A stretch of DNA of 64,000 nt from an uncultured Thermoanaerobaculia bacterium (GTDB taxonomy: Bacteria > Acidobacteriota > Thermoanaerobaculia > Multivoradales > JAGPDF01). A program made the position numbers and the translations under genes. The notes under the pieces were generated by a model. That model was given only the letters and a program-made list of their open reading frames with translations, searched no databases and had not been told where the DNA came from. Each line of letters opens with the position of its first letter. The first letter of the stretch is position 1. Below, piece by piece: positions 36,286 through 63,109 of the stretch. The stretch covers positions 2,729-66,728 of the forward strand of contig CAYYIK010000007.1 in the NCBI GenBank assembly GCA_964471955.1, given 5' to 3'.

Positions 36286-36455
36286 GCCGGTCCGGGGGCG
36301 GCCCGCCGCGCCGCCGGCGACGATAGACTTGCCGGGTTCCGGCCGGCCGCGAGACGCGCCGGCCGCCGCCCCCGGAGGATCCGATCCCGTCTTCGCGCCG
36401 TCCCCGCATCGCCGTCGACCTGCGCGCCGTCGTCGCCGAGCCGACCGGCATCGGG

Positions 36456-47652: not shown

Positions 47653-47961
47653 GTGGAAGCCGCCGACTTTCTCCCGCTGCTCGGTAGCCGGTTCCAGGTC
47701 GACCGCTCCGGCCCTACGATCCACCTCGAACTCGTCGAGGTACGACGCTCGCCGCCGGGCAGCGAGGCCGAGGCGCGGCACCGTGCCGCCGCCGGCATCC
47801 GGGAAGAACCGTTCACCCTGCTCTTTCGCGGCCCGCGCGACACTCCCCTCGACCAGCGGATCCATCGCCTCGAGCAGGACCGGCTGGGGACGCTCGAGAT
47901 CTTTCTGGTACCCGTGCGGCCCGACGACCGGGGGCCTCTTTACGAGGCGGTCTTCAACTGA
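47653..47961 (+). CDS. Small conserved hypothetical protein (resembles the roughly 100-aa family ending ...YEAVFN, possibly DUF6916; name from memory, unverified)
   Basis: 102 aa, GTG start. Pattern F.PL.G..F.V...L.LVEV...PF.L.F.GP...L.Q....L....LG.LE.FLVP....YEAVFN. Its 3' end overlaps the convergent GNAT gene by 8 nt. Confidence 0.65.
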   Translation: MEAADFLPLLGSRFQVDRSGPTIHLELVEVRRSPPGSEAEARHRAAAGIREEPFTLLFRGPRDTPLDQRIHRLEQDRLGTLEIFLVPVRPDDRGPLYEAVFN

Positions 47962-48454
47962 CCGGACGCCATTCGAGGAGCCGGTAGACCTCGCCCGCCG
48001 CGCCGATCTCGCGGAAGCCGAGTCGGTCGTACAGGGCGCGCGCCGGATTGAAGCGCTCGACGTGGATGGTCAGAGGAACCCCGACGGCTCCGGCCTCGCG
48101 TTGAAGGTCTCCGATCAGGCGGGTTCCGGCGCCGAGCCGGCGGAACCCGGGGAGCAGCGCGATGTCGACCAGCCGGATCTCTGCCGGCCGTCGATCGACA
48201 TAGAGGCGCCCCGCGGCATGGCCGTCGATTTCGACGACCTGGAAGCTGCACCCGGGATACTGCAGCCGCCACCAGCGATCCTGCGCCTCGAACTGCTGGC
48301 GCAGAAACGCCTCTTTCTGCGCCGCCGTCCACGCGACCGGCGCGAGTTCCTCGGCTCGGGTAGAGGCGTAGACGCCGAAGAGGAACTCCCGATCCGCAGC
48401 CGTCACCGGCCGCAGCGCCAGCGACGCCTTCGGCTCAGGCCTCGTCGCCGACAC
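47954..48454 (-). CDS. GNAT family N-acetyltransferase
   Basis: 166 aa, GTG start. The acetyl-CoA region is LLPGFRRLGAGTRLIGDLQREA, with NPARALYDRLGF at the C-terminus. It is the last gene of the long minus-strand operon. Confidence 0.82.
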   Translation of the reverse strand: MSATRPEPKASLALRPVTAADREFLFGVYASTRAEELAPVAWTAAQKEAFLRQQFEAQDRWWRLQYPGCSFQVVEIDGHAAGRLYVDRRPAEIRLVDIALLPGFRRLGAGTRLIGDLQREAGAVGVPLTIHVERFNPARALYDRLGFREIGAAGEVYRLLEWRPVS

Positions 48455-49220
48455 TCTCGACAGTCATCACCAGCGAGGCGAGCGCCGCGGGAAATGGCTC
48501 CTCCTCCCCTGGCAGGTACCGCTCCAGGTCCCAGGCCCCCTCGGTGAGGCCGAGGAAGTAGACGCCGGCCTGGAGTCGTGGCACGCCACCTTCCTTGCCC
48601 AGAGTGAGCCTGGCCCGGCGCCGGACTCCCGAGTCCGGGATCGCCGTTCGATCGGTCGGCCGCCGGTCGCCGGCCGCCCCGTCAACGCGCACTTCGAGCA
48701 CCAGCGGGTCGTACTCGTCGAGCCAGCTGCGGAACCGGATCGGCGACGACGCACCAGAGGCTCTCCGGTAGCTCCAGGCGTGGAACGGGAGCTGTCGCCC
48801 CAGCTCGTCACGCACCAGGACGTCGAGATCGATCTCCCGCGGCGGTGTCACGCCGCGCTCCGGACCCGCGAGGAGGCCCTGGACGCGGATCCGGACGCTC
48901 CCTGCGGCGAGTCGCGGGTCGCCTGCCGGCAGCGAGAAGGCGGGCACGACGATCGACTCGGCCGCGAACGGCCGCTCCTCGTCCGCCTCGAGCGGCACCG
49001 ATACGGGCCACCGCGGTGTCGCGAGTGCGTCGCTGCCCAGCAGGTAGCCGACGGAGAGGGCCGCAGCGGCAGCCGTTTCTCTCTTCGTCGTGGCGGCCAG
49101 CGCCCAGCCGGGCGACAGCGCCAGTGCCCCTCCGGCGACCAGCAGCTCGCGCCGGCCGAACGGCGTCGAAACCCACGCCGGTTCGTGTGAAGACTTCGCC
49201 CTGCGTTCCTCGTGGCTCAA
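48435..49220 (-). CDS. Hypothetical exported protein with a twin-arginine-like signal
   Basis: The TTG at 49220 is preceded by GAGGAG and overlaps the methyltransferase stop (TTGA). 261 aa. The signal is FGRRELLVAGGALALSPGWALA. I recognised no domain. Confidence 0.6.
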   Translation of the reverse strand: MSHEERRAKSSHEPAWVSTPFGRRELLVAGGALALSPGWALAATTKRETAAAAALSVGYLLGSDALATPRWPVSVPLEADEERPFAAESIVVPAFSLPAGDPRLAAGSVRIRVQGLLAGPERGVTPPREIDLDVLVRDELGRQLPFHAWSYRRASGASSPIRFRSWLDEYDPLVLEVRVDGAAGDRRPTDRTAIPDSGVRRRARLTLGKEGGVPRLQAGVYFLGLTEGAWDLERYLPGEEEPFPAALASLVMTVESVGDEA

Positions 49221-49786
49221 GATCCACTCCTCGGCGGCGAGGCCGCCTCCGGCTCCGGCGGCGCCCCGACCCGCCAGAGCCGGATCGTCCGCGGCGTCCC
49301 GTCGCCGTCGACGAAGCGCTCGGTGCGCGCCGGCTCCGGGGACTTCAGAGCGAAGCTGTGGGAGACGATGCGCGTCCCCGCCGGCAGCTCCGCGATCAAC
49401 CGATTGCCGATCCGTTCGGTCGACCACTCGACCAGGTAGAGAGTGATGACCGTCGCCTCGCGCGGAACCAGGTCGCTGGCGTCGCGGACCTCGAAACGGG
49501 TGCTCGCCGCGACGCCGGCCCGCTCGGCCTCCTCGCGGGCCCGCTCGACCCAGAACGGCTCGACGTCGTAGCCGATTCCGCGCGCGCCCCGGCGCGCCGC
49601 CGCGATCACGATCCGGCCGTCGCCGCAGCCGAGATCGCAGACGACGTCGTCCGCGCCGACCTCGGCCAGGTCGAGCATCCGTTCCACGACCTCGGGCGGC
49701 GTCGGCACGTACGGAGCCAGCACGTAGCGTGGAGCGACCGGTCCGTTGTCCGGTGTGATCGAGTCTGCGACGGCGGCGATCGTCAT
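49217..49786 (-). CDS. Class I SAM-dependent methyltransferase
   Basis: 189 aa with motif I VVCDLGCGDGRIV and an acidic loop GYDVE. Its start is 1 nt after the stop of the third tail-collar gene. Confidence 0.78.
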   Translation of the reverse strand: MTIAAVADSITPDNGPVAPRYVLAPYVPTPPEVVERMLDLAEVGADDVVCDLGCGDGRIVIAAARRGARGIGYDVEPFWVERAREEAERAGVAASTRFEVRDASDLVPREATVITLYLVEWSTERIGNRLIAELPAGTRIVSHSFALKSPEPARTERFVDGDGTPRTIRLWRVGAPPEPEAASPPRSGS

Positions 49787-49787
49787 C

Positions 49788-50309
49788 TCAGGTCCGCGGC
49801 GGGAAGACGCCCTGCAAGGCGATCGCGAAGTAGCACGTCAGGTACGGCTGCATGTTGTTGTGCGGCTGGTCGCCGCCGCCAGGAGCCAGGGCCTGGTCCG
49901 ACGCGCTCGCGTTCGGAGACGCCTGATACAGAGCTCCTCCGCCGGAGAGTGCGAAGGACGCAGAGGCGCTCGCAACATTGGTGTCGGCCAGGTCGACGAC
50001 GTTGGCGCGCAGAGTGTGGGAATGCGCGGGAATCTCCGATTGAAGGAGCGAAACCGTCTCGCTGCCTCCCGTCTCCCCCAGGTCGTGCAGGGACAATCCC
50101 GGGCCTTGTCCCGGCTGCATCGGTGCGCGACCCTGAAGGTCCGGCAGTGCGAAGTTGCTCTTGCCGTTGCCTCCGTATGTCGTGCCGAGCAGCGAAAAGA
50201 GCGCCGTATTCTGCGACAGGGGAAGAAGCTGCCCGTCGCACCACGCCCAGCCCTTCGGGGCGAAGTTGAACGGGAAGATCCGGATCTCAGCGACGAAGGG
50301 ATCTGCCAT
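49788..50309 (-). CDS. Phage tail-collar domain protein (MdpB/COG4675-like), paralogue 3
   Basis: 173 aa: MADPFVAEIRIFPFNFAPKGWAWCDGQLLPLSQNTALFSLLGTTYGGNGKSNFALPDLQGRAP...QPYLTCYFAIALQGVFPPRT. Confidence 0.9.
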   Translation of the reverse strand: MADPFVAEIRIFPFNFAPKGWAWCDGQLLPLSQNTALFSLLGTTYGGNGKSNFALPDLQGRAPMQPGQGPGLSLHDLGETGGSETVSLLQSEIPAHSHTLRANVVDLADTNVASASASFALSGGGALYQASPNASASDQALAPGGGDQPHNNMQPYLTCYFAIALQGVFPPRT

Positions 50310-50321
50310 GACGTCTCACTC

Positions 50322-50825
50322 TCAGGCCGGGCTCGGGAAGATTCCGAACAACGAAATGATGAAATTGACGCAGAGATAGGGCTGGAAGTTCGTGTGCGGC
50401 TGGCTGCCGCCCGTCGACCCGATCGCCGCAGCATTCATGTTTCCGCTCGGAGCGTCGTTGATGTACGGGGTGACGTTGAAGGAGTTCGCCGGGAGATTGC
50501 CCGAAGCGTTGATCTGGTCCCCGGTAACTCCGGCGGCGAGCAGCGGATGGCCGTGCGCCGGAATCTGCTGAATCGTGAGCGTGATCTCCTCCGCGCCTCC
50601 GGTCTCCGCGAGGATGAATCCGCTCCCCTGATGAATCGGAATCCGCCCGCGCAGGTCGGGCAGCGCGAAGGTGGACTGCCCGTCGCCTCCGTAGGTGGTG
50701 CCGATCAACTGGAACAACGTCTCGTTCTCCGAGATCGGCAGCAGCTGACCCTCGCACAGCATCCAGCCTGCCGGCGCGAAGTTTCCGCCGAACATCCGGA
50801 TCTCTCCAACGTAAGGTTGCGCCAC
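50322..50825 (-). CDS. Phage tail-collar domain protein, paralogue 2
   Basis: 167 aa. The GTG start is preceded by GAGGAGG, which overlaps the upstream stop. MAQPYVGEIRMFGGNFAPAGWMLCEGQLLPISENETLFQLIGTTYGGDGQSTFALPDLRGRIP...QPYLCVNFIISLFGIFPSPA. Confidence 0.9.
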   Translation of the reverse strand: MAQPYVGEIRMFGGNFAPAGWMLCEGQLLPISENETLFQLIGTTYGGDGQSTFALPDLRGRIPIHQGSGFILAETGGAEEITLTIQQIPAHGHPLLAAGVTGDQINASGNLPANSFNVTPYINDAPSGNMNAAAIGSTGGSQPHTNFQPYLCVNFIISLFGIFPSPA

Positions 50826-50835
50826 GACGGCCTCC

Positions 50836-51336
50836 TCAGTTCGGGCTCGGGAAAATGCCCTGGAGGGCGATACAGAAGCTGATCGTGAGGAACGGCTGCA
50901 TGTTCAGATGCGCCTGGCTTCCTCCGACGGCGGTCACGGTGGCGGAGCTCATGGCGACCAGGGATGCCGGCGCGTGGTAAGCGTTGTTGGCCCCTCCGAG
51001 GACCCTTCCCGCCGGATTCACGTTGCCGCCGGTCGAGGCCGAGGAGACCGCCAGCACATGCACGTGTTGCGGCATCTCCGCGATCGACAAGGTGTGGGCC
51101 TGCTCTCCCCCGCGCTCACCGAGCGTGTGCGCCGATCCGACGTGAATCGGGGCGCGCCCGCGCAGGTCGGGCAGCGCGAAATTGACGCGGCCGTCGCCGC
51201 CGAAGGTCGTTCCCAGGAGAGAAAACAGGGCCTGGTTCTGATTGATCGGCAACAGCTGGCCGTTGCAGAGGGCCCAACCCTTGGGAGCGAACTGGAAGCT
51301 GAACAGTCGAACTTCGCTCAGGAACGGTTCGGCCAT
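50836..51336 (-). CDS. Phage tail-collar domain protein, paralogue 1
   Basis: 166 aa with SD GAGAGGAAG. MAEPFLSEVRLFSFQFAPKGWALCNGQLLPINQNQALFSLLGTTFGGDGRVNFALPDLRGRAP...QPFLTISFCIALQGIFPSPN. Confidence 0.9.
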   Translation of the reverse strand: MAEPFLSEVRLFSFQFAPKGWALCNGQLLPINQNQALFSLLGTTFGGDGRVNFALPDLRGRAPIHVGSAHTLGERGGEQAHTLSIAEMPQHVHVLAVSSASTGGNVNPAGRVLGGANNAYHAPASLVAMSSATVTAVGGSQAHLNMQPFLTISFCIALQGIFPSPN

Positions 51337-51372
51337 GGTCTTCCTCTCATCCGCGACTCGTGCACCAGCGCG

Positions 51373-54300
51373 TCACGGCAGCGGGCAGGCAGCGCCGCCC
51401 GGGGTATTGACGAAACCGCCGCCCGTAGGCACGGTATTCGACGCGATCGCCGAGGGCACTCCGTCTCCCGAGTTCCGCGCGATCAGGTAGTTCTGGACCG
51501 CGGTGTTGTCGTTGTTGGCGCCCGCGTATCCGCGCAGCGCAACGGTCGTCGCCTGCCGCTGGCGGAGTCGGATGTCTTCGCCTCCCGCCGGAATGTCGCT
51601 GGGCGCGCCCGCGGTCGAAACCGAGTTCTGGAGAGCCCCGGCTCCGCCCGCGTCGAGGCAGATCTGGTAGGTGTCTCCGGGCACTGTGCCGGCGTTCAGG
51701 TGAATCCCGTTCTTCGGGATCGAAGCGGTGGCCGGATTGGTACCCGGAAGCGTGATCAGATTGCCCGTGATCGTGGCGTTCAGGGCGCCGGGCTGCGCCG
51801 TCGCCCCGCCGCCAGTCAGCAGCTCGATGCCGAAGTTGTTGTACCAGCGGATCGTGTTGCCGCTGATCAGCGCGTCGATCGCCCCCTGGCCGACGCTCTG
51901 GATTTTGAGCGCCGATCCCTCCAGCGATCCGGAGTTGGGCGTCGCGGCCGCGCCGATCGTATTTCCCTGGAACGTCAGATCGAGGCTGCCCACGCCGGTC
52001 GGCTTGACGATCAACACCGCCGGCCCGACCGCGTCGCGGAAGCTGTTGTTCTGAACGACGAACGTGTCCGAGCTCGTGGCGCCGGCGAAGAAGGAAACTC
52101 CACCGCCGCCCGTCGCGATTCCGCCGTGGTTGTTGCTCAGCGTATTGCCCGTGAAGGCGAAGGTGAAGGCGCCGTTCGAGTTGTTGTTGACCTGGATCAG
52201 GTCGCCACGGGCGGACGTGAAGGCTCCATTCTGGACGGTGACGTTCATCGTCGCGCCAGCCGAACCGAGAGTCTCGAAGTAGGCCCCGTCGTTGCCGTCG
52301 GACAGGCTGTTGGCGCCGATCGTGACCCCGGAGAGAGTCACCGTGAGCGCTCCAGCGGTGTTGACGATCCTGAGATTGTCTTCGAAACCGCCGCTCACGT
52401 TGCAGTTCGTGAAGGTCGCCGTACCGGTCAGCTCGCTGAACCGGATACTCCCCTCGTCCGCCGCGGCGCTGTTGCCGTTGACGCCGTTGACGACGCTGTT
52501 GTCGAGGTTGAAACCCGTGACGGAAGCGCCGCGAATCGCGAAGTCGCCGAAGTCGTCGAGCTGCATCCAGGAGAACGACGGGTTCAGCGTGCTGGTGAGC
52601 GAGATACCGGTGCTCGTCGCGTTCCGAATCGTGCCGCCGGTCGCGGCCGAGCCCGTTCCGGAGACGATGAGCCTGCCTGCACCTCCCGTCGCATTGAGGA
52701 TCAGGCCGTTGGCCGGATCAGCAGCGGCCGTCGCATTTCCCGAGCTGATCGACCGGAAGCTCAGGTTCGAGGTCCCGATCGGCGTGCTGGTCACCCGCAA
52801 TGCGGTCGCGCTGACCGAGTCGATGGTGTTGATTCCGGTGATGTTCAAACCGAGCGCGTTGGTGTTGCTGGTCGCCGCGAAGCCCTCGCCGGTGGTGGTG
52901 TCGATGTCGAGTCCGCCGCTGAAGGTGATCGCCCGGCTGCCGGCGTTGCCGTTGAGCAGGATGCCGGCGCCGTTCTCGTCGACGGCGCCCGAGAGCAGCA
53001 AGTCGTCGCTCGCGTCGTCTCCGGCCCAGGTCGTGATCGAGACGGCTCGCGCCGTCGCCGAGTTGTTGGTGATCGTCCCGGCGTAGTTGATGCGGCCGTT
53101 GCCACCGCTGACGTTGAAAGCGGGTCCGGCCGCTCCCGCCGCGGTCGTGATCGTGCTGCCGGCGCCGGCGGTGAACTGGGCGTCGAAAGCCGGATTGATC
53201 GCGTCGAGCACCGTCGCCAGCGAGACGCCCGTCGTCGTCGTGTTCGTGCTCCGAATCGTGGTCAGCGGCAGCGAGGCGGTCAGGTTGGAAAGGTCGACCG
53301 CCGGACCGCCCGTCGCTTCCGCCATCCCCACGCCCGCGCCCACCGACACGCGCGTACCCGTTCCCGCACCGACGTTCACGGCGCCGGTGCCGCTGACGCG
53401 GATCGCGGCGCCGTTGTCGGCGAAGACGTCGAGGTCGGTGAAGGCGAGGTCGCCCGAGACGTTGGTCAGAACCAGACCGCTCGCGCCGACGCCGTTGCCC
53501 GGCGCGCCGACCACCGTGGCGCCGCCCGCGACCTGCTGATAGGCGCCTCCCGGCGTGGCGTCGAGCGTCAACGGACCCGTGAGCACCAGGCCCGAGCCGC
53601 CGGTGTTGCCGGAGACCACGTTGTCGTCGAAGGCCGTGACCTGAACGGTGCCGTTGGTCCTCGCCACGTCGAGGCCGGTGCCGCCGGCGGTGATGCTGTT
53701 GTCGTGGATCGAGAGCGTCAGCGTCCCGGTGCCGCCGGCGTTGACGTCGATCCCCTCGGCACCGGAGGCACGCACGGTGTTGTTCGCGATCGTCAAAGCG
53801 CCCGACCCGCCGAAGGCGCCGGTGAGCGTGACGTCGACGGCGTTCGCGTTGCCGGCCAGATTCAGGCCGACGATCTCGGTCGGGATCAGATCGGTGGCCA
53901 TCACCGCGCTGCCGCCGACCGTGGTGTTGTCGAGCATCGGCCGGGTACCCGGTGCGATCAGCACGACGGGCGAGGCACCGCCGTTCAGCACGACCGGGAT
54001 CGAGAGCCCCGCCCCTTCGCCCACCAGATGCTGACCCGCCTTGAGCGTGATGCCGGCGTTCTGCCCGGTGGTGGCGCCGTCGCCGTTGTAGACGAAGATC
54101 CAGTCGTTGGCACCCGAGGCGGTCTGCGCTTCGACCAGGGTGTCGAATGGATCGATCGAACGTCCGAGACCGCCGGCGGTCGCGTCGTTGCGGACGTACC
54201 AGACCCGCTGGAGGAACGAAATCGTCACCGTGCCCTGGACGCTCACGTCGCCGTCGGAGACGTTGTACGTGAAGCTGTCGTCGACCGTTCGCCCGGCCGG

Positions 54301-56514
54301 CGACGTGTAGCTGAACGTGCCGTCCGAGGCGACCGCGACCACCGCGCCGGCGGTCGCCGTACCGAGCGACGTGGTCAACGCCGCCGGGCCGTCCGGATCG
54401 CTGTCGTTGGCGAGCAGGTTCCCCGCCGCGAAGACGTAGGGACCGTTCGCGTCCGGCCCGGGATCGATTGCCGCGACCCGCAGCCGGGTGTTCGAAATCG
54501 TCTGGAACGACTCGCCGGTGATCACCGGAGGATCGTTGACCGGCGTAACGGTGACGCTCTTCGACGCCGTGTTGCTCGGATCGGCGCCGTCGTTCGCGAC
54601 GAAGGTGACGAGGCGGTCCGGCAGGGCCGTCGGGCTCTGGGAAGCGTTGGCGTAGAGGACCGAGCGCAGGCAGCCCTGGTAGACCGCGACCGTCGCCGTT
54701 CCCGAGATCGCCAGCGCGTGGCCCGGCGCGGAGACGACGAGGCCCGGGCAGGTTGTGCCCGGCGCAGCGACCGAGAGCGCCTCCTGGCCGCCGTTCTGCG
54801 GATTCGTCAGCGACACGATCGCCGAGACGAGATCCGCGTCGTCGGCGTCGGTGACGTTCAGCGCACCGTCGACCACCACCGCGCCGGCGTCTTCGACGAA
54901 CGAGGTCGCGCCGCCGCTGGTTGTGACCACCGGTACATCGTTGACCGCGGTGATCTCGACCGTCGACGTCGCGGCGGCGCTCGACTCGACGCCGTCGCTC
55001 GCGCTCCAGGTTACCGTGCGGTCGGACGGGTCGGGATCCTCCGAGCTGTTCTCGTAGGCGACCGAGCGCAGCGCCGCCTGCCAGGCAGCGACGGTATCGA
55101 GTCCGTTCAGGGCGAGGGTGCCGGTCGCCGGCGCGAAGACGCCGGTGATGCTGGGCGTGTTCGTGAACGACAGGACGTCTTCCCCGCTCTGGAAGTTGCC
55201 GGTGATCTGCACCGTCGCCGAGACCAGATTGGCGCTGTCGACGTCGCTGACCGTGAGCGCGGCGTCGACCGCGGTCGGCGGATCGTTCTCGGTGTAGGCG
55301 AGCGTGCCGCCGGCGACGACGACCGGCGGCGCGCGGTCGATCACGATCCGGGCGCGGGCCGTGGCCGGGCCGATCGGCGCGCCCGAGGCGTCCACCGTCG
55401 GGTCTCCCGCCGCCGCGGCGATCGTGTAGGCGAAGTCGTCGACGCCGTTGAAGCCGGCCGGCGGCGTGTAGACGAAGTGCCCGTCGGCGGCGACGTCGAC
55501 GCTGCCCCCCTGGCTGGTTGCCTGCCCCGCCGCCGGCACCGCGGCGAGCGAGTCGCCGTCCGGATCGGTGTCGTTGCCGAGCAGCGCGGGCAGCGCCGCC
55601 GTCGAGCTGTCGATCGGCTGGTCGGTGACCGTCCGGTAGACGTCGGGTCGTGCCAGCGGCGTCGTGCGCACCGAACCGGCGACCAGCGCCAGATTGGAGT
55701 CGAGGATGTCCGCGAGCTCGACGCCCGTGGCGCCGCCACCGGCGTTCGAGATCGTGATCCGGTAGCGAATGGTGTCTCCCGGCACGACCGCGCCGGGAAT
55801 CGGATCCCCGGCCGGCGTGCGGTCGACCTTGAGCGCCGCGAGTTCGGGAGCCGCCGTGCGCAGCTCCGAGAGCATCAGCGCCGGCGTCGCTTCCCCCGAC
55901 TCGACGCGAAGGACGATCGCGCCCACCGCGGAGAGATCCGCCGGCGTCGCCGCGCCGGGCGCCTGCGCCAGGCTCGAGAAGTCGACGAAGATGTCGACGG
56001 GAGCCGCGATCGCCGGCAGGACCAGGGCGCCGCGCGACACCGAATCGGCGTCCTCGTAGATCTCGAGCACCAGGGAGGTGCCCGCCGCCGCCGCGTCGAT
56101 GGTGAAACGGAAGGCGCCCGCGCCGCCGGCGGTCAGGTCGACGCCGCCCAGCCCGGCCGGGTCGATCGCGTCGGGGTCGCTGTCGCCGTCCCAGATCACG
56201 AAGACCGCACCGCGCGAGTCGGGCGTGGTCGCGGTGACGCCGACGTCCAGCGCGCCGCCCGCCACGCCGGCGGTGACCGGCCCCGCTCCGGCGAAGCGTT
56301 GCACCCGCAGTCCGCGGTTCTGACCGAGGATGTCGGCGCCGCCGGTGACCGCGTTGCTGGCGCCGCCGGGCGGATCCGAGATCACGGTCTGGTTGGTCGT
56401 GAACTGATCGACGACGACCTGGCCGGCGACCGGTGCGGCGGCCAGGACCAGTCCGGCGACGAGTGCGGCGAGCGCGGCGGGCCGTCGCGGCGAGGGTCTC
56501 ATGGCGCCTCTCAT
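51373..56514 (-). CDS. Giant secreted protein (1713 aa): unknown N-terminal domain, DUF11-like and cadherin/VCBS-like modules, then a long right-handed parallel beta-helix region
   Basis: The ATG overlaps the upstream stop (ATGA). Signal peptide RRPAALAALVAGLVLAAAPVAG. Modules seen: GDTIRYRITISNAGGGATGVELADIL (DUF11-like); NDTDPDGDSLAAV...GFNGVDDFAYTI (cadherin/VCBS-like); repeated ...VSDVDS.NLVSATV.I...AL.SV.Y.N... modules; and many Gly/Asn/Thr-rich beta-helix turns (NNTVRASGAEGIDVNAGGTGTLTLSIHDNSITAGGTGLDV). Confidence 0.85.
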   Translation of the reverse strand: MRGAMRPSPRRPAALAALVAGLVLAAAPVAGQVVVDQFTTNQTVISDPPGGASNAVTGGADILGQNRGLRVQRFAGAGPVTAGVAGGALDVGVTATTPDSRGAVFVIWDGDSDPDAIDPAGLGGVDLTAGGAGAFRFTIDAAAAGTSLVLEIYEDADSVSRGALVLPAIAAPVDIFVDFSSLAQAPGAATPADLSAVGAIVLRVESGEATPALMLSELRTAAPELAALKVDRTPAGDPIPGAVVPGDTIRYRITISNAGGGATGVELADILDSNLALVAGSVRTTPLARPDVYRTVTDQPIDSSTAALPALLGNDTDPDGDSLAAVPAAGQATSQGGSVDVAADGHFVYTPPAGFNGVDDFAYTIAAAAGDPTVDASGAPIGPATARARIVIDRAPPVVVAGGTLAYTENDPPTAVDAALTVSDVDSANLVSATVQITGNFQSGEDVLSFTNTPSITGVFAPATGTLALNGLDTVAAWQAALRSVAYENSSEDPDPSDRTVTWSASDGVESSAAATSTVEITAVNDVPVVTTSGGATSFVEDAGAVVVDGALNVTDADDADLVSAIVSLTNPQNGGQEALSVAAPGTTCPGLVVSAPGHALAISGTATVAVYQGCLRSVLYANASQSPTALPDRLVTFVANDGADPSNTASKSVTVTPVNDPPVITGESFQTISNTRLRVAAIDPGPDANGPYVFAAGNLLANDSDPDGPAALTTSLGTATAGAVVAVASDGTFSYTSPAGRTVDDSFTYNVSDGDVSVQGTVTISFLQRVWYVRNDATAGGLGRSIDPFDTLVEAQTASGANDWIFVYNGDGATTGQNAGITLKAGQHLVGEGAGLSIPVVLNGGASPVVLIAPGTRPMLDNTTVGGSAVMATDLIPTEIVGLNLAGNANAVDVTLTGAFGGSGALTIANNTVRASGAEGIDVNAGGTGTLTLSIHDNSITAGGTGLDVARTNGTVQVTAFDDNVVSGNTGGSGLVLTGPLTLDATPGGAYQQVAGGATVVGAPGNGVGASGLVLTNVSGDLAFTDLDVFADNGAAIRVSGTGAVNVGAGTGTRVSVGAGVGMAEATGGPAVDLSNLTASLPLTTIRSTNTTTTGVSLATVLDAINPAFDAQFTAGAGSTITTAAGAAGPAFNVSGGNGRINYAGTITNNSATARAVSITTWAGDDASDDLLLSGAVDENGAGILLNGNAGSRAITFSGGLDIDTTTGEGFAATSNTNALGLNITGINTIDSVSATALRVTSTPIGTSNLSFRSISSGNATAAADPANGLILNATGGAGRLIVSGTGSAATGGTIRNATSTGISLTSTLNPSFSWMQLDDFGDFAIRGASVTGFNLDNSVVNGVNGNSAAADEGSIRFSELTGTATFTNCNVSGGFEDNLRIVNTAGALTVTLSGVTIGANSLSDGNDGAYFETLGSAGATMNVTVQNGAFTSARGDLIQVNNNSNGAFTFAFTGNTLSNNHGGIATGGGGVSFFAGATSSDTFVVQNNSFRDAVGPAVLIVKPTGVGSLDLTFQGNTIGAAATPNSGSLEGSALKIQSVGQGAIDALISGNTIRWYNNFGIELLTGGGATAQPGALNATITGNLITLPGTNPATASIPKNGIHLNAGTVPGDTYQICLDAGGAGALQNSVSTAGAPSDIPAGGEDIRLRQRQATTVALRGYAGANNDNTAVQNYLIARNSGDGVPSAIASNTVPTGGGFVNTPGGAACPLP

Positions 56515-59444
56515 GGCACGACGGCGCTCCAGCGCGAGGTATCGCCCGTCTCGAATCCGTCATTGAACAGCAGCGGCGAGGGCCGCACGTAGAGCTGATC
56601 GAAGTGCGCGGTAAACAGGGCGTCCGTGGTTGTCCTGGCCTCGATCGTCCAGCGAGCCGAGGCGGTGCCGGCGGGCGCCCGCTGCGGGTCGACCAGTTCG
56701 AGCCAGGCTCCGGCCGAGTCGAAGAACGGCTGGGCGACTTCGACCGAACCCGCCGTTCCCGTGCAGCCGGCGCCGGTGAAGTACTCGACGCGTCGCGCCA
56801 CGGTCACCGGCGTGCCGGCGCTGGCGGCGATCCGCACGCGGGTCACCAGCTCATAGTCGGCGGCGACCAGCGGCGTGCACTGGGCGACGGAGAATTCCGA
56901 CGGACCCTGCGGCGGGCCGAGCAGCGGATCGATCCGCAGCGCCCCCGAGACCGGCGCGTCGTCGAGGTCGACGGCCGGATCGTGGATCACGTCGCCGGTG
57001 CCCTCGGGCGTCGCCTGCCAGGCCCGCAGGTCGCAGTCGAAGTGGCCGTTGAGCAGGCGATTGCCCGCATCGATCCGGAATCCGAGCTCGTGCTCGTCGT
57101 CGCCCGAGGGGGTCGAATCGCCGTCGAGCGGGTTGCCCGCGACGTCCTCGAGCGTCGGGCAGACCAGCAGCCGGTAGGGGCGGTCGCCGAGCGCTTCGCC
57201 GAAGGTCACGGTCGCGACCGACGGAGAAGCCTGATAGACGACTGCGGTGGCGTCGATCGCCACGTCGTCGCCGGCCGGTGGCCCGCACAGCGCGGTCGAG
57301 AACGCGCCGTCGGGACCGGTCGCGAACAGCCGGTAGTTGTCCGGGTTGGTGACGTCCTCGGGGTCGGCGTCGCCGGCCGGATCGGCCATCTCCTCGCTGA
57401 ATTCGAGCGCGAGCGCGGTCGGCGTGGCGAGCACCGTGTCGCACTCCGCGATCTCGCCGTCGGGGCTCGCGGGGACCGAGTCGACGATCACGATCGTCGG
57501 TGCGGTGAGGTCGAGCGCCACCGTCTCGCAGTCGTCGTTGTCGCCCGGGACCGGGTCGGGCCCGTTCGAGCCGTCGTCGGCGATCGAAGCGCAGTTGTCG
57601 ATCTCGGTCGTGCCCGGCGGCAGCGGGTCGTCGAGCTCGACGGCGAAGACGGCGATGCCCGCGCCGCCACCGCCATCGAGAGATCCGATCGCCAGATCAC
57701 AGGCGGTGCCGGCGGGTGCACCGTCGGCGCACGACCAGCCGGCGGTCGAGGCCGCGGCGTCGAAGGTGGTGTCGACCGGCACCGTCTCGGACAGGACGAC
57801 GCCGACAGCCGTCTGGTTGCCGGCGTTCGAATAGGCGAGATCGAAGGCGATCGTGTCACCCGGGAACGGCACGCCGCCCGAATAGCTCTTGACAATCGCC
57901 AGGTCCGGCGCGGCTTCGATCGGCGTGGAGTCCTCGGCGCCGTTGTCGCCCGGGTTCGGGTCGGCACCGTTGGCGCCGTCGTCGGCCACGCTGGCGACGT
58001 TGACCACCTCGCTGACGCCGGCGGGCAGCGGCGTCTCGACTTCGACGGCGAACGTCGTCGAGCCGCTCCCCCCGCCCGCCACCGCACCTACCGCGTACGT
58101 GCAGGCGGTGCCCTCGGGCGAGCCGTCCGGGCACGACCAGCCGGGCGTCGAAGCCGCGGCGTCGAAGACCGTGAACGGCGGCACGAGCTCCGACAGTACG
58201 ACGCCGGTCGCCCCCTGGTTGCCGCCGTTCGACCAACCAAGCGCGTACGGGATCGTGGAACCAGGAGTCGACGTGATCCCGCCGTCACTCTTGGTCAGCG
58301 CGAGGTCCGGCTGGGCGTCGACAGGCGTGGTGTCCGAGGCCGAGTTGTCGCCGGGATTCGGATCGGCGCCGTTGACGCCGTCGTCGGCGATCGAGGCCGT
58401 GTTGGCGATCTCGGTGACGCCGGCGGGGACCGGATTCGCGACGGTAACCGCGAAGGTCGCCGAGCCCGAGGCGCCGCCGCCGACGAGCGAACCGACCGCG
58501 AGCGTGCAGACCGCGCCCGGATTGCCGTCGGGGACGCACAGCCAGCCGGCCGTCGACGCGCCCGGGGCGAAGACCGCGTTGGCCGGAACGGTCTCGCTGA
58601 GCGTCACGCCGGTCGCCTCCTGATTGCCGTCGTTGGCGTAGGAGAGGACGTAGGCGACGGTCGCGCCCGGGACCGCCGAGATTCCGCCGTCGCTCTTGGC
58701 CAGGGTCAGGTCGGGCGCGGCGTCGACCGGAGTGGTGTCGGTCGAGCTGTTGTCGGCCGGCGTCGGGTCGGCGCCGTTGGCACCGTCGTCGGCGATCGTC
58801 GCCGTGTTCGAGATCTCGTCGAGCCCCGCCGGCACCGGCGAGTCCACAGTGACCGCGAAGGTCGCCGAACCCGCAGCGCCGCCGCCGGCGAGCCCGCCGA
58901 CCGTCAAGTTGCAGACCGACCCCGGGTTGGCGTCCGGAACGCAGATCCAGCCCGCGGTCGAGGCGCCGGCGTCGAAGGTGGTGCTCGCGGGCACCACTTC
59001 GCTCAGCGTCACGCCGCTCGCCGCCTGGTCGCCGTCGTTGGCGTAGGCGAGCAGGTAGGCGACGGTTCCGCCCGGAACGACCGAAACGCCGCCGTCGCTC
59101 TTGGCCAGGCTGAGATCCGGCTGGGCAACGACCGGTGTGAGGGTCGGGTCCTGGGCGCCCGGCTCGCCGGGATCGTCCGTGAGCAGCGTGGCGGCGTTGG
59201 TCGCCTGGATGGTCGCCTGATTGGTCACCTCGACGACTCCGGCCGGCAGCGGCGTGTCGACGGTCACCAGGAACTCGATGGTGACCGCGCTGCCTGCCGG
59301 CAGGATGCCGATCGACGTGTCCTGCGCCCACGCGGTCGCGGCGGCGCCGAAGGCCGCGCCTGCGATCAGCCATCTGCGAAGCCACGCGTGCCGCGAAACC
59401 AACCGCTCGCTCCTTCCGTCGACGACGGGATGCGGACGCAGCAT
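56511..59444 (-). CDS. Secreted DUF11-repeat protein (4 full and 1 partial repeat of about 133 aa) with an Ig-like and a CenC/CBM4_9-like domain and the C-terminal GFExGD-W tag
   Basis: ATG 59444 is preceded by GGAG; the track ORF starts at TTG 59468. Signal WLRRWLIAGAAFGAAATAWAQD. Repeats read PDL.LAKSDGG......G.TVAY.L.YAN.G.Q.A.GV.LSE.VP, each with two Cys. Then NGHFDCDLRAWQ (CBM-like). The protein ends LFNDGFETGDTSRWSAVVP. Confidence 0.88.
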   Translation of the reverse strand: MLRPHPVVDGRSERLVSRHAWLRRWLIAGAAFGAAATAWAQDTSIGILPAGSAVTIEFLVTVDTPLPAGVVEVTNQATIQATNAATLLTDDPGEPGAQDPTLTPVVAQPDLSLAKSDGGVSVVPGGTVAYLLAYANDGDQAASGVTLSEVVPASTTFDAGASTAGWICVPDANPGSVCNLTVGGLAGGGAAGSATFAVTVDSPVPAGLDEISNTATIADDGANGADPTPADNSSTDTTPVDAAPDLTLAKSDGGISAVPGATVAYVLSYANDGNQEATGVTLSETVPANAVFAPGASTAGWLCVPDGNPGAVCTLAVGSLVGGGASGSATFAVTVANPVPAGVTEIANTASIADDGVNGADPNPGDNSASDTTPVDAQPDLALTKSDGGITSTPGSTIPYALGWSNGGNQGATGVVLSELVPPFTVFDAAASTPGWSCPDGSPEGTACTYAVGAVAGGGSGSTTFAVEVETPLPAGVSEVVNVASVADDGANGADPNPGDNGAEDSTPIEAAPDLAIVKSYSGGVPFPGDTIAFDLAYSNAGNQTAVGVVLSETVPVDTTFDAAASTAGWSCADGAPAGTACDLAIGSLDGGGGAGIAVFAVELDDPLPPGTTEIDNCASIADDGSNGPDPVPGDNDDCETVALDLTAPTIVIVDSVPASPDGEIAECDTVLATPTALALEFSEEMADPAGDADPEDVTNPDNYRLFATGPDGAFSTALCGPPAGDDVAIDATAVVYQASPSVATVTFGEALGDRPYRLLVCPTLEDVAGNPLDGDSTPSGDDEHELGFRIDAGNRLLNGHFDCDLRAWQATPEGTGDVIHDPAVDLDDAPVSGALRIDPLLGPPQGPSEFSVAQCTPLVAADYELVTRVRIAASAGTPVTVARRVEYFTGAGCTGTAGSVEVAQPFFDSAGAWLELVDPQRAPAGTASARWTIEARTTTDALFTAHFDQLYVRPSPLLFNDGFETGDTSRWSAVVP

Positions 59445-59503
59445 AGAGACTCCGCAGGCGCGATACAAGCGTCACGCGACGGTTTCGTCGTGGCGCGCGC
59501 GGC

Positions 59504-59572: not shown

Positions 59573-60208
59573 ATGATGCCTACCGGAAGAGTCCTCAGTC
59601 TCCTCGTCGCCGGGCTGCTCGCCGCCGGGCAGCTGCGCGCCGCCGAGCTGCTGCCCAACGGTCGATTCGACGACCCGGGAACGGGAACCGCCGGCTGGGT
59701 GGCAGTCGATCCGTTCTCGAACCTCGCCTGGGACGGTAGCCGCGACGCCGATGGTTGCGCCGGCTCCGGCTCCGCCGCCCTGACCAACAGCGCCACTACT
59801 TCCGATGCCGGGGCGCGCTTCGCCAGCTGCGCCGCCGCGGTCCCCGGCGCCACGGATTACGGCTTCGGCGCCTCGATCCTCTTCCCGATGCAGGAGCGCG
59901 AGGGCTCGGCCTCCGTCGCCGTCCACTGGATCGAGGGTACGGGGTGTGCCGGCGCCGTGCTCGGCACTTCGAACACCCCCCCCGCGCTGTCGTCGATCGA
60001 AGAGGTGTGGATCTCCCTCGCCGGCACGGCGACGGCGCCGGCGGCGACCGGCAGCGCGCTGATCGTGGTAACCCTGACCAAGAAGGTCGGCGGCTCCGAA
60101 CTCACGGCGCGGCTCGACGAGGTGGCGCTGCGGCCGCCCGGCGAGATCTTCGGCGAGGGCTTCGAGGTTGGCGCCGTCTGTCGCTGGACCGCCGCTGCGA
60201 CCGACTGA
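59573..60208 (+). CDS. Small secreted CenC/CBM4_9-like protein with a variant of the C-terminal tag
   Basis: ATG 59573 within the track ORF 59504..60208; 211 aa. Signal peptide MMPTGRVLSLLVAGLLAAGQLRA. AELLPNGRFDDPGTGTAGW is a CBM-like start. The protein ends IFGEGFEVGAVCRWTAAATD. Confidence 0.8.
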   Translation: MMPTGRVLSLLVAGLLAAGQLRAAELLPNGRFDDPGTGTAGWVAVDPFSNLAWDGSRDADGCAGSGSAALTNSATTSDAGARFASCAAAVPGATDYGFGASILFPMQEREGSASVAVHWIEGTGCAGAVLGTSNTPPALSSIEEVWISLAGTATAPAATGSALIVVTLTKKVGGSELTARLDEVALRPPGEIFGEGFEVGAVCRWTAAATD

Positions 60209-60259: not shown

Positions 60260-63109
60260 TCAGCGCGGCAGGCGGGCCAGCAGCGGATCGTGGTCGCTGG
60301 CGCGCTCGGCGTCGGGGCAGTCGGAGTCGAGGTGCACCGCTTCGATGCGTGCTCCGCGCGCCAGCGACGGCGACACGAGGAGATGATCGATCGCCGCCGA
60401 GCCCCCTTCGAAGGAGAAGGTGTAGCGCTCCTCGGGCGCCAGGCGCAGGACCAGGTTCTCGAGCGGCGGCCGGCCGATCTCGCGCATCGGTTCGCTGCCC
60501 GCGACATCGTTGAAGTCGCCGATGACGATCAGCCGCGCCGTCGGATCGGCGGCGAGACGCGACATCGCGAAAGCGCGTACCTCGCGCGCCTGGGCGAGGC
60601 GGCGCGCCGCGGTCGGCCGGCGTGGCGGCTGGACAGCGCCGAAGGCGCGGTCGTCCTCGTACTTCGAGGACCAGTGGTTGACCACGACGACGACCGGCCG
60701 CCAGCGACGGAAAAAGCGGCGCCCGGTCGGCACCTCGACCTCCACCACCAGAGAGCGACGCACCCCCTCACCGTCGGCCCCAGAAGGCGCGAATGCGGCC
60801 GATGCCGGCGCGAGCCGGGCCGGGTTGACCTCCAGCCGTCCGTCGGCGCCGAAGCGCGCCTCGGTCCTCGCATCGGGCTGGCCGCGCGGTGCGAAGCGGA
60901 CGCGCGCCGGATCGAGCAGCAGAGCGACCCGGATGTTGCCCCCCGGCTGCCCCCCCTCGCGGTCGGCTTCGGGGTCGATCTGCACGGCCCGATAGGTCGG
61001 CCCGCCGGCCCGCTCGATCGCCGCTACGAGCTTCGCCAGCGTCCCTTCGGCGGAGACGACAGCGTCGCCGCCGCGCGGACCGGAGTCGTCCTGAACCTCC
61101 TGCAGCGCCACCAGCTCGGGCGCTCCGAGGCCGCGCACGATCCGCGCCGCGAGGCGCTCGAAGCGGTCCTCGTCGTCGGCCGCCGAGAGGTTGTAGAGGT
61201 TGTACGACGCGATGGCGAAGCGCCCCGGCTCGTTCTCCGAGCGCGCCGGGCGCGAGCAGGGGGCGCCCGACGGGAGAATCTCCGGCGGCGCGAGCGGCTG
61301 CAGGCGGTAGTTGGAGAAGGCGTAGTCGACGATTCCGGTAAGCGGTCCGGCCACCCGGTCGCCCACCGCGGCGCGCGGCATGCCGCCCGCCAGGCGTCCG
61401 GAGACGAAGACGCGCGCCAGCGGGCCGCCGCCATCGCGCAGCGCCAGGGCCCCCCCGGCCGCCGACGCACCACTCGACGGCACCCCTTCGGGCAGGACGA
61501 CGATCTCGCCGAACGAGCGGGTGGCGCCGGCCACCACGCTCTCGGGCAGCGTGGCGCGCATCCCCTCGAGGCTCTCCCAGAAATCGATCGCGTCTTCGCC
61601 CGGCTGAAAGAGCGCCAGCGCGTCGTCGTCGACCTGCGGCGGGATCTCGAGCTCATACCAGAGCAGCGGCGGCTCGGGCAGCGCCGCGCCCGCCGGCACG
61701 AATTCGAACGCCGCCAGCTCGAGCGTCGTCACGCTCAGCTGGTCGCGCCCGGGGACCCGCTCGAGGAGCCGGCCGCCGACCCGCACTGTCGCGCCGACCG
61801 CGACGCCGTCCAGCCGCGCGGCCGCGACGAAGAGCCCCTCGGAGGTCCGCGGGTCGCCGTCCGGCCGCGTCGACTCGATCCAGAAGCCGCGATCGCGCGG
61901 GCGATCGACCCGCGCGGTCACCGTCCCCTCGATTCCCGTCACCCAGCGTCCGGCCAGCGGCGAATGGTGACCGGCGCCCTGCAGGTCGGCGATCGTCAAC
62001 GGCGAGAAGTCGACCGCGAAGGCGAGGACCTGGGTCACCTGCTCGGCGGGCGAGAAGTTGTCGTCCGACACGACGACCAGCGAGCTGCGGCCGTCCGGCA
62101 GCCGAGGTCCGAAAGCGATCCCTTCGAGGTTGTCCAACCGCAGGCCGAGGCCGGCGAAGTCGAGCAGCAGGAGTTTGCCGGCGGCGCGCGGCGGCGGCTC
62201 GGGCAGGCGGTCGAAGTCGGCCACCGGCGCGGCGCCGGCGAGGTCGACGAGGAAGAGCCTCGCTTCGACCCCCACCCCTTCGACGTACTGCCGCTCGAGC
62301 GCCAGCAGACGGCTGGGCGAGAGCGCCAGCAGATCGACCAGGCCGTTGACCCGGAAGGCCCCCTCGCCCGGCGGCGTGCCGCGGATCGGCTCGACCGCGA
62401 GGACGAACTCTTCCGGCGGCGCCTCCGGTGCGGTGAGGTTCCAGCGCAGCAGGCGCGCCGAGGCGGCGACCCCGAAGTCGGCCTCCGGTCCGTCCTGGGC
62501 CAGCGCCGACTCGGTGGCCCCGAACAGGAATCGGCCGTCGGGCGAGCGCGCCAGACTCTCGAAACCGAGGTTCTCGCGCACGCCGCGACTCCCCCGGTCG
62601 TCGGGCAGGAAGCGGTCGCGCAGGGGCAGATCGCGACGCCAGCGACCGCCGCGATCGAACTCGGCGACGAACGGCGCCAGGCCGACCTTGGCCTCCCCCT
62701 CCGAGCCGACGAAGAGGGCGTCCGGCGCGAGGGCGAAGCCCTCCGGATCGAGGCTTCGGGGGGGGAACGGCCGGCCCAGCCGGTCGGCGAGGGGGATCTG
62801 GCCGACGACCGACACCCCATCCGGAGGGAGCCGGCCGGAGGTCAGGTCGACGCGCAGCCGCATCACCCGCGCCGGACCGTGGACGCTGCGGTCGTCGCTC
62901 ATCGCCAGGAACTCGCCGCTCGCCGGATCGAACGAGAGCGAGGAGAGACCGCCCACCGGAACCCCGTCGAACGTCGTGCCGCGCGGCAGCTCCGCGGCGC
63001 CGATCCACTCGAACGAAGTCGGGACGGCGATTTCGGCGGCGGCGGCTGCGGCGGCGAAGAGAGAGAGGATCGCCGCGAGGGCGAAGCGCGGCGGCGGGCG
63101 ATCGGGCAT
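60260..63109 (-). CDS. Secreted multidomain nuclease/phosphatase: N-terminal phytase-like (esterase-like) beta-propeller plus an ExeM/NucH-like extracellular endonuclease (EEP fold)
   Basis: 949 aa. Signal peptide FALAAILSLFAAAAAAA. GGLSSLSFDPASGEFLAMSDD marks the phytase-like part. IADLQGAGHHSPLAGRWVTGIEGTVTA...GFWIES marks an ExeM/NucH-type OB-like module. The C-terminal EEP motifs are ASYNLYNL, LVALQEVQD, VVNHWSSK, GDFND and ASDHDPLLARL. Confidence 0.82.
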   Translation of the reverse strand: MPDRPPPRFALAAILSLFAAAAAAAEIAVPTSFEWIGAAELPRGTTFDGVPVGGLSSLSFDPASGEFLAMSDDRSVHGPARVMRLRVDLTSGRLPPDGVSVVGQIPLADRLGRPFPPRSLDPEGFALAPDALFVGSEGEAKVGLAPFVAEFDRGGRWRRDLPLRDRFLPDDRGSRGVRENLGFESLARSPDGRFLFGATESALAQDGPEADFGVAASARLLRWNLTAPEAPPEEFVLAVEPIRGTPPGEGAFRVNGLVDLLALSPSRLLALERQYVEGVGVEARLFLVDLAGAAPVADFDRLPEPPPRAAGKLLLLDFAGLGLRLDNLEGIAFGPRLPDGRSSLVVVSDDNFSPAEQVTQVLAFAVDFSPLTIADLQGAGHHSPLAGRWVTGIEGTVTARVDRPRDRGFWIESTRPDGDPRTSEGLFVAAARLDGVAVGATVRVGGRLLERVPGRDQLSVTTLELAAFEFVPAGAALPEPPLLWYELEIPPQVDDDALALFQPGEDAIDFWESLEGMRATLPESVVAGATRSFGEIVVLPEGVPSSGASAAGGALALRDGGGPLARVFVSGRLAGGMPRAAVGDRVAGPLTGIVDYAFSNYRLQPLAPPEILPSGAPCSRPARSENEPGRFAIASYNLYNLSAADDEDRFERLAARIVRGLGAPELVALQEVQDDSGPRGGDAVVSAEGTLAKLVAAIERAGGPTYRAVQIDPEADREGGQPGGNIRVALLLDPARVRFAPRGQPDARTEARFGADGRLEVNPARLAPASAAFAPSGADGEGVRRSLVVEVEVPTGRRFFRRWRPVVVVVNHWSSKYEDDRAFGAVQPPRRPTAARRLAQAREVRAFAMSRLAADPTARLIVIGDFNDVAGSEPMREIGRPPLENLVLRLAPEERYTFSFEGGSAAIDHLLVSPSLARGARIEAVHLDSDCPDAERASDHDPLLARLPR

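Follow-up and report, generated by a model that had tools for sequence, protein, structure and literature searches.

Collar domains are known from tail proteins of phages such as gp12 and gp10 of T4 (PF07484, PF21939). In gp12 the HxH motifs of three chains hold a metal on the trimer axis. Small collar-domain proteins are also encoded by bacteria outside any phage context, as exemplified by the COG4675/MdpB proteins, Rhizobium RhiB, and Microcystis MrpB, and RhiB is a tail-collar protein encoded in the rhiABCD operon (PMC13133039). A stretch of 64,000 nucleotides from contig CAYYIK010000007.1 of an uncultured soil bacterium of the Thermoanaerobaculia (Acidobacteriota) (the window) contains three genes of this kind, designated collarA, collarB, and collarC. 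They are found together with genes encoding a giant secreted protein, a GNAT acetyltransferase, and a small DUF6916 protein, and these six genes form the core of what is almost certainly a conserved dedicated module. No description of a module combining the collar triad with GNAT, DUF6916, and the giant was found in the literature (8 million full texts). In the databases the collar proteins are named 'tail fiber protein' (NCBI), 'microcystin-dependent protein' (JGI), or 'hypothetical', and such labels invite false prophage calls.

Relatives of the locus were identified by scanning one genome per GTDB species, and at least 513 were confirmed. The best 80 of these at least 513 loci encode a collarA protein that is 68-82% identical to that of the window, and the set used for comparison comprises 86 loci. 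The best 80 loci are found in Acidobacteriota, Verrucomicrobiota, Planctomycetota, Chloroflexota, Actinomycetota, Bacteroidota, Gemmatimonadota, and Alpha-, Beta-, and Gammaproteobacteria. The module occurs in about ten phyla and, in addition, on plasmids of Deinococcota and Bacillota; at least eleven phyla are represented in all. Relatives of collarA number in the thousands, and the nearest ones beyond its own species group, at about 80-85% identity, come from unrelated phyla. The neighbourhoods of three relatives, one of them at 97% identity, one from a Thermoanaerobaculia genome, and one from Methylomicrobium, all display the same layout.

The proteins of the window were mapped on the 86 loci by tblastn, and DUF6916 additionally by a hidden Markov model (HMM). 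The order collarA, collarB, collarC was found in 80 loci, which are all those where the three genes were detected; the remaining loci are truncated by a contig end or, in the case of L043, atypical. The GNAT was found in 79 loci, DUF6916 in 66 (75 using the HMM), and the C-terminal half of the giant in 65. Matches to a DUF11-repeat protein encoded in the same cluster of the window are present in 19 loci, a 261-aa protein with a twin-arginine translocation (Tat) signal in seven (about ten by jackhmmer), and a methyltransferase in only four other loci. The conserved core consequently consists of collarA, collarB, collarC, the GNAT, the giant, and, on the other strand, DUF6916, while the DUF11 protein, the methyltransferase, and the 261-aa protein are lineage-specific additions. 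An unbiased all-against-all clustering of open reading frames (ORFs) across the 86 loci revealed no further shared neighbour. The original prediction, which was made from the window alone, proposed a dedicated system of nine genes and named unrelated neighbours around collar triplets as the observation that would speak against it. The triad was instead found to keep GNAT, giant, and DUF6916 across about ten phyla. The idea of a dedicated system therefore holds, while the nine-gene unit does not, as only six genes belong to the core, one of them on the opposite strand, and the three others are lineage-specific.

Among the cultured carriers of the module are Ruegeria sp. TM1040, Aminobacter aminovorans, Mesorhizobium, Chiayiivirga flava, Spirosoma luteum, and Paenibacillus amylolyticus. 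Plasmid pAA01 of A. aminovorans and the megaplasmid of Ruegeria sp. TM1040 encode a giant, three 'tail fiber proteins', a hypothetical protein, a GNAT, and a small convergent DUF6916, and P. amylolyticus has an Ig-like giant, a GNAT, and the triad. The genes are TM1040_RS01845-01875 in Ruegeria and AA2016_RS29755-29785 in A. aminovorans KCTC 2477, and C. flava DSM 24163 has a partner of the Tat type. Many copies are found on megaplasmids. The position of the giant relative to the triad varies; it precedes the triad in some loci, follows it in others, and can also be encoded on the other strand. A metagenome-assembled genome (MAG) of Gemmatimonadales (L034) and one of Chiayiivirga (L036) contain two or three tandem units, each composed of a giant and collarA-B-C and including one diverged triad (55-59% identity), which suggests that giant and triad were duplicated as a unit.

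All three collar proteins match PF07484 with scores of 94.8-101.5 bits (cut-off 24), and collarC also matches Gp10_C (PF21939) above the cut-off (28.1 bits). They further match phrog_9116, a phage tail-fibre distal domain, over their full length (E 1e-23 to 1e-29). The best relative in sequenced phages is merely 39% identical, and the only PDB sequence match is marginal. None of the three has a signal peptide. An alignment of 18 sequences from six phyla or classes shows that A, B, and C share the start MA[EQD]P[FY], C23, H90 and H92 (the HxH motif), and GGSQxHxNxQP, and the signature residues specific to each paralogue are also conserved across phyla. The presence of three fixed paralogues, together with the analogy to gp12 and its HxH of three chains, suggests an A·B·C heterotrimer. 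Fusions of A, B, and C were considered as evidence of a complex, and none was found; the long ORFs in the cluster are out-of-frame artefacts of high-GC (guanine plus cytosine) DNA. The proposal that a collar trimer serves as a binding or tip module was made already in the original prediction, and it remains plausible given the full-length match to a phage distal domain, the invariant HxH, and a variable central stretch. That the triad forms a heterotrimeric binding unit outside the cytoplasm has about an even chance of being correct. Proteins of the collar family are among those identified in a soil metaproteome and an exoproteome of Ruegeria (PMC5579227, PMC4949626).

The collar proteins consist of a strongly conserved scaffold and a variable centre. 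Compared with the window, most 10-residue blocks of the scaffold (aa 1-90 and 140 to the end) are about 85-97% identical, while most blocks of the centre (aa 91-139) are 28-53% identical. The collarA orthologues of 83 loci from about ten phyla are 68-82% identical to the window protein, and the median identities of collarB and collarC are 74 and 76% (74-76% for the collars overall). The corresponding values in the same loci are 49% for the GNAT, 38% for DUF6916, and 35% for the giant. The synonymous substitution rate (dS) is saturated for all genes, with medians of 1.2-1.6 and many undefined values, while the non-synonymous rate (dN) is 0.20-0.23 for the collars compared with 0.49-0.60 for the GNAT and DUF6916. 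This indicates extreme purifying selection on the collars. Collars of one phylum group are no more alike than collars of different groups (identity 0.74 in both comparisons), and the closest sequence belongs to the same group for 29 of 75 collars compared with 53 of 64 GNATs, so that the GNAT tracks taxonomy. Since dS is saturated, the GNAT follows taxonomy, and the collar identity is flat, the conservation reflects constraint, and recent horizontal transfer is rejected as the cause of either the conservation or the low GC content of the collar genes. Between the window and its 97% relative the changes are mostly synonymous and spread along the genes, with no clustering in the tip. The sequence of the central stretch is specific to lineages but does not evolve as in an arms race. 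A constraint of this strength is unusual for a patchily distributed non-housekeeping protein and implies an invariant partner or assembly.

It had been noted in the original prediction that the collar genes are relatively AT-rich, and this was taken as a sign of horizontal acquisition. The dip is real; the GC content of the three genes is 63-65.5% compared with 70-73% in the neighbours. However, about two thirds to three quarters of the deficit lies in codon positions 1 and 2 and thereby reflects amino acid composition, while GC at position 3 is 0.80-0.83 in the collars and 0.83-0.90 in the neighbours. With synonymous sites saturated and most of the dip explained by amino acid constraint, the dip is poor evidence of acquisition and results largely from an amino acid sequence that is kept frozen in a high-GC genome.

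The window has a GC content of about 72%, and the cluster on its minus strand spans 47954-59468 (Table 1). The original prediction described it as an operon of nine genes. The cluster is there, but it contains eight ORFs, which is also the number obtained from the genes the prediction named and from its seven junctions. These junctions, -4 (ATGA), 36, 10, 12, 1, -4 (TTGA), and -20 nt, all agree with coordinates and sequence, and the Shine-Dalgarno sequence GGAGG ahead of collarB does overlap the collarA stop codon. Profile searches likewise bore out the domain assignments for DUF11, Collar in the three small proteins, the methyltransferase dependent on S-adenosylmethionine (SAM), and GNAT. The DUF6916 gene had escaped notice; it and the GNAT gene converge, with an overlap of 8 nt at the GNAT stop. 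The DUF11 protein probably starts at the ATG at 59444, which yields the 976 aa annotated in its relatives.

Table 1. Genes of the module and its lineage-specific neighbours, with positions in the window.
Gene or protein	Position	Strand	Length	Family matches and remarks
DUF11 protein	56511-59468	-	985 aa	Pfam DUF11, E 2.5e-46; four repeats
Giant protein	51373-56514	-	1713 aa	Signal peptide; Big_9, Cadherin_4, Cadherin_5
collarA	50836-51336	-	166 aa	First gene of triad; PF07484, E 4.4e-28
collarB	50322-50825	-	167 aa	Second gene of triad; PF07484, E 2.4e-29
collarC	49788-50309	-	173 aa	Third gene of triad; PGLSL insertion; PF07484, E 3e-27
Methyltransferase	49217-49786	-	189 aa	SAM-dependent; Methyltransf_31 and Methyltransf_25
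Twin-arginine-signal protein	48435-49220	-	261 aa	TTG start; no Pfam family
GNAT	47954-48454	-	166 aa	PF00583, E 8e-11
DUF6916	47653-47961	+	102 aa	Small split beta-barrel; PF21880, E 1.5e-26
Secreted protein	59573-60208	+	~211 aa	Divergently transcribed; membership uncertain; no Pfam match

The downstream flank contains rpsA (S1), a Na+/H+ antiporter gene, and CstA, while the upstream flank encodes the small secreted protein of Table 1, a phytase-like protein, and a SpoIIE phosphatase. The annotated flanking genes (about 43-64 kb of the window) include none of the phage or secretion-machine type. Promoter, terminator, and Rfam scans gave nothing informative. The phytase-like protein (60260-63109, minus strand) is a secreted protein of 949 aa in which a phytase-like esterase domain (E 1e-78) is joined to an endonuclease/exonuclease/phosphatase (EEP) domain; its gene is situated directly upstream of the module and adjoins it also in the 97% relative (L002). 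A glycosyltransferase of family 4 (GT4) and an initiating sugar transferase of the Bac_transf type are encoded at 36327-41189 (plus strand), about 7 kb from the module, and indicate an exopolysaccharide locus.

DUF6916 is a large family; a profile search of 1.84 billion representative proteins gave 8,999 members, including forms with a Tat signal and a tandem form with a Tat signal. Within the loci it occurs either as a protein of about 100 aa without a signal or as a longer one of 140-190 aa, which has a clear twin-arginine signal and was observed in Verrucomicrobiota, Pyrinomonadaceae, Planctomycetota, Actinomycetota, Chloroflexota, and Gammaproteobacteria. DUF6916 is also fused to enzymes. 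P0225 is a GNAT-DUF6916 fusion in which the GNAT part is 47% identical to the window GNAT over its full length, and the fusion is encoded 10 nt downstream of a collarC gene, while the methyltransferase and DUF6916 form a single ORF of 290 aa in L074. Because DUF6916 is fused to the GNAT, fused to the methyltransferase, tagged with Tat signals, and encoded beside the collars, we infer that it may be an adaptor linking the enzymes to the triad. A short metagenome contig from beach sand carries a Tat-signal DUF6916 gene and, starting 22 nt downstream of it, a single collar gene (L092:1007-1981), so the link between DUF6916 and collars occurs also outside the classical triad layout.

As for the enzymes themselves, the acetyl-CoA motif RRLGAG of the GNAT is intact, and its best curated match is RimI-like, though weak. 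The best NCBIfam match of the methyltransferase is an archaeal protein-lysine methyltransferase (81 bits, cut-off 200), and it resembles enzymes of the protein-lysine or PrmA type. A toxin-antitoxin pair of the TacT/AtaT type was considered for the GNAT and rejected, since its partner is the DUF6916 beta-barrel and not a DUF1778 or ribbon-helix-helix (RHH) protein, and since the orientation of the two genes is variable and often convergent. In two Competibacteraceae loci (L028:11654-13395 and L046:2027-3774) a 180-aa protein and a GT4 glycosyltransferase are encoded between collarC and a Tat-signal DUF6916. A glycosylation step may have been added in some lineages.

The original prediction described a Tat-exported protein with no recognisable domain, and the 261-aa protein indeed has no family match. 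Inspection of the motif shows a twin-arginine (RR) followed by an uncharged hydrophobic stretch (FGRRELLVAGGALALSPGWALA). It is predicted to be all-beta and fills a 'Tat-partner' slot between the triad and the GNAT. According to a local HMM and jackhmmer, its family is confined to loci of the Thermoanaerobaculia type. An AlphaFold2 model based on 10 homologues was unusable (mean confidence, pLDDT, 44), and a relationship to DUF6916 was dismissed, the hhalign probability being 0.3%. When the slot does not contain a Tat-signal DUF6916, it is usually occupied by another Tat-signal protein of 200-270 aa, such as the 261-aa family of the window or unrelated families in Burkholderiales and Lysobacterales. 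Among the 66 loci with adequate flanks, 48 have a Tat-like ORF at most 2.5 kb from the triad. Close to the triad there are 1.70 such ORFs per 10 kb, compared with 0.52 per 10 kb at distances above 5 kb. The Tat-signal gene often abuts collarC or collarA (30 nt or less). Three alphaproteobacterial loci (L090:10602-12086, L091:10650-11867, and L045:11586-12884) have a signal-less protein of 400-494 aa in the slot between collarC and GNAT, which gave only sub-threshold FG-GAP/Tectonin-like (beta-propeller) matches. The signals and gene positions speak for export of the collars by Tat hitch-hiking, a proposal that is less likely than not to be correct.

The giant starts with a stalk of DUF11, Big_9, and cadherin-like domains and continues with a repeat-rich C-terminal half. 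It was described as a beta-helix protein in the original prediction; the repeat appearance and a sub-threshold match to PF13229 (E 0.005) favour this, while no match reaches the threshold, and the C-terminal half is probably beta-helical, judging from its sequence. The part that is conserved beside triads corresponds to residues ~1140-1660. With L001-L003 excluded, 62 of 83 loci encode the C-terminal half, and conservation peaks at residues 1260-1420 (57-58 of the 62 loci). The sub-threshold Beta_helix match lies further upstream. Residues 1101-1713 gave no Pfam match even at E <= 10 and no PDB sequence match. In about a quarter of the loci the giant is missing, or cannot be detected by similarity to that of the window.

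The DUF11 (CLIPPER) protein contains a signal peptide, its DUF11 repeats, and a C-terminal domain of about 300 aa. It is an accessory, lineage-specific protein that resembles a stalk or adhesin. Both this protein and the giant thus combine a signal peptide, as read from the sequence, with tandem domains, and DUF11/CLIPPER, Big_9, and cadherin-like domains are among the isopeptide-bonded stalk kinds catalogued for fibrillar adhesins (PMC12617251, PMC9210967). The suggestion of a surface fibre in the original prediction is plausible. The signal regions of the DUF11 protein (LRRWLIAGAAFGAAATAWA) and the giant (SPRRPAALAALVAGLVLAAAPVAG) contain RR, and either the general secretory (Sec) pathway or Tat is possible. 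The C-terminal part of the ~211-aa secreted protein is 31% identical over 91 aa to the C-terminal domain of the DUF11 protein (BLASTP, E 3e-9), and both end in a motif of the type GFExG(D)xxRW. The ~211-aa protein is conserved in L001 and L002 and weakly in L004 and L080, that is, in close relatives only.

A possible mechanism can be outlined from the established gene set, sequence constraint, fusions, and Tat signals. A, B, and C would fold in the cytoplasm as one heterotrimer around a metal held by three invariant HxH motifs, and export must then be of a folded trimer. DUF6916 would recognise this trimer as an adaptor and bring the GNAT to it in all lineages and the methyltransferase in that of the window. 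That DUF6916 binds the trimer is proposed because the signal-less collars are encoded beside Tat-signal proteins, and because DUF6916 occurs free, Tat-tagged, and fused to enzymes. A Tat-signal partner, which would be the 261-aa protein in the window and a Tat-signal DUF6916 elsewhere, would carry the folded, signal-less trimer over the inner membrane. Outside the cytoplasm, the trimer and the Sec-exported giant would constitute a binding or tip unit, in which the variable stretch of about 45 residues in each collar would face a ligand or a lineage-specific partner. This combination of a folded A·B·C trimer, DUF6916-linked modification, Tat piggy-back, and cooperation with the giant is a tentative model that falls somewhat short of an even chance. 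Its most far-reaching form, an obligate heterotrimer derived from a domesticated phage tip, exported folded by Tat and DUF6916, and acting as tip or anchor of giant surface fibres in at least 11 phyla, is unlikely.

Several observations weigh against this mechanism. The giant is only about 35% conserved compared with about 95% for the scaffold, and no encoded partner is as conserved as the scaffold, the invariant target of which could be intracellular. A Tat partner is missing in Alphaproteobacteria (Mesorhizobium, Aminobacter, and Ruegeria) and in several Bacteroidota, Chloroflexota, and Actinomycetota loci, so Tat piggy-backing cannot be universal, and Tat signals were detected by a home-made motif filter that gives both false positives and false negatives. 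The two fusions are single examples, each from a metagenome assembly, and the GNAT and DUF6916 genes are often convergent and not co-transcribed. The single operon in the window is putative. We infer the heterotrimer, the substrate of the modifying enzymes, the export route, and the surface location alike from the features described above.

An intracellular triad would account for some of these points. The scaffold would then bind a universal cytoplasmic component, the GNAT and the methyltransferase would act there or on the triad itself, and the giant and the Tat proteins would merely be co-regulated. The lack of signal peptides on the collars, the weak RimI-likeness of the GNAT, and the lineages without Tat partners fit such a role, as does a scaffold that is about 90-97% identical across phyla, more than any partner in the module, and thus suggests an invariant target. 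On the other hand, the characterised relatives of the fold identified through the Pfam and PHROG matches are all extracellular receptor-binding tips, collar-family proteins are reported from exoproteomes, Tat-signal genes abut the triad far above background, and the linkage to giant secreted stalk proteins is tight in both diderm and monoderm phyla, which makes an intracellular role distinctly less likely than an extracytoplasmic one. The gene set might also not be one system; the triad, GNAT, and DUF6916 could be a mobile cassette that inserts beside large adhesin genes, the other genes being independent. The restricted distribution of the DUF11 protein, the methyltransferase, and the 261-aa protein, the many megaplasmid copies, the variable position and strand of the giant, and the quarter of loci where it is missing or undetectable would all be expected from a cassette. 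What such an insertion would not explain is that a specific region of about 500 residues in the giant accompanies the triad in the 62 of 83 loci mentioned, or that giant and triad form tandem units in Gemmatimonadales and Chiayiivirga. The methyltransferase is moreover tied to the core by a gene fusion, and the junctions in the window are tightly coupled. This explanation, too, has a rather small probability.

In other systems, toxins as well as immunity proteins are found among GNATs, and the original prediction mentioned a bacteriocin-like or contact-dependent device as one option. The triad would in such a device be the receptor binder, the giant a depolymerase or delivery fibre, and the GNAT an immunity protein or toxin. 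A conserved scaffold with a variable tip is indeed what a receptor-binding protein may look like, and the sub-threshold beta-helix signal recalls tailspike depolymerases. However, the searches revealed no gene for a toxin, an immunity protein, lysis, or a secretion ATPase, the GNAT lacks the DUF1778/RHH antitoxin partner and a fixed orientation relative to DUF6916, and the tip does not diversify rapidly between 97%-identical relatives, unlike that of arms-race binders. A role in antagonism is therefore very improbable. An anti-phage defence system was rejected, since PADLOC matched neither the collars nor the GNAT, DUF6916, and the 261-aa protein, and gave only weak generic methyltransferase matches for the methyltransferase. 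A prophage tail-fibre remnant would agree with the phage families matched by the collars and with the name given to the orthologues by NCBI. Nevertheless, no other phage gene was found in the annotated flanks or in the 86 other loci, the closest phage protein is distant, the flanks contain housekeeping genes such as rpsA, and the collars are under strong purifying selection across about ten phyla, so this possibility is effectively refuted. Sheath, tube, baseplate, terminase, capsid, and integrase genes are absent near the module in the annotated flanks, and no cluster of such genes was found in the 86 loci. The conclusion in the original prediction that the locus is neither a prophage nor a tailocin or extracellular contractile injection system (eCIS) agrees with these results.

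Should the proposed extracytoplasmic heterotrimer and its export as a folded complex prove correct, the module would represent an unrecognised envelope apparatus and its triad a new class of Tat hitch-hiker cargo, and few known proteins outside housekeeping functions would be as conserved as the scaffold. On the present evidence, however, it is unlikely that both the apparatus and the Tat cargo are of a new kind. DUF6916, with about 9,000 clusters at 50% identity, would gain its first functional context as an adaptor fused to GNAT, methyltransferase, and Tat signals.

When compared with gp12 and gp10 of T4, the collar proteins belong to the same family over the whole length of each small protein, contain the same HxH motif, and display the same layout of a conserved collar with an intervening variable stretch. 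The module differs in having neither fibre shaft nor baseplate, and while gp12 is one homotrimeric chain, three paralogues in fixed order are found here. It is also chromosomal or located on megaplasmids in a non-phage context, and its scaffold is frozen while phage fibres diversify. In the rhi operon, RhiB is encoded beside RhiA and RhiC under RhiR/RhiI control. Descriptions of the rhi and mrp systems mention no A/B/C triad accompanied by GNAT, DUF6916, and a giant, and the feature known to be shared with the module is the Collar domain. MrpC turned out to be an unrelated pilin. Tailocins and eCIS have in common with the module that bacteria make use of parts derived from phage tails, but no sheath, tube, baseplate, spike, or ATPase genes were found in the window or in the 86 loci.

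Tat hitch-hiker export of signal-less subunits occurs for instance in the HybO/HybC hydrogenase and in DmsA/DmsB, and the known cases are redox enzymes. The triad resembles them as a signal-less, possibly metal-containing oligomer encoded beside a partner with a twin-arginine signal. It differs in that the cargo would be a binding trimer of phage type, as suggested by gene adjacency, and in that the Tat partner is missing in some lineages. Fibrillar adhesins share with the giant and the DUF11 protein a signal peptide and repeated stalk domains, but they have not been reported with a triad of tail-fibre tips, a GNAT, and DUF6916, and the C-terminal region of the giant matches no known family. 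The module thus joins domesticated tail-fibre domains to a locus of the fibrillar-adhesin type, a combination that has so far not been described.

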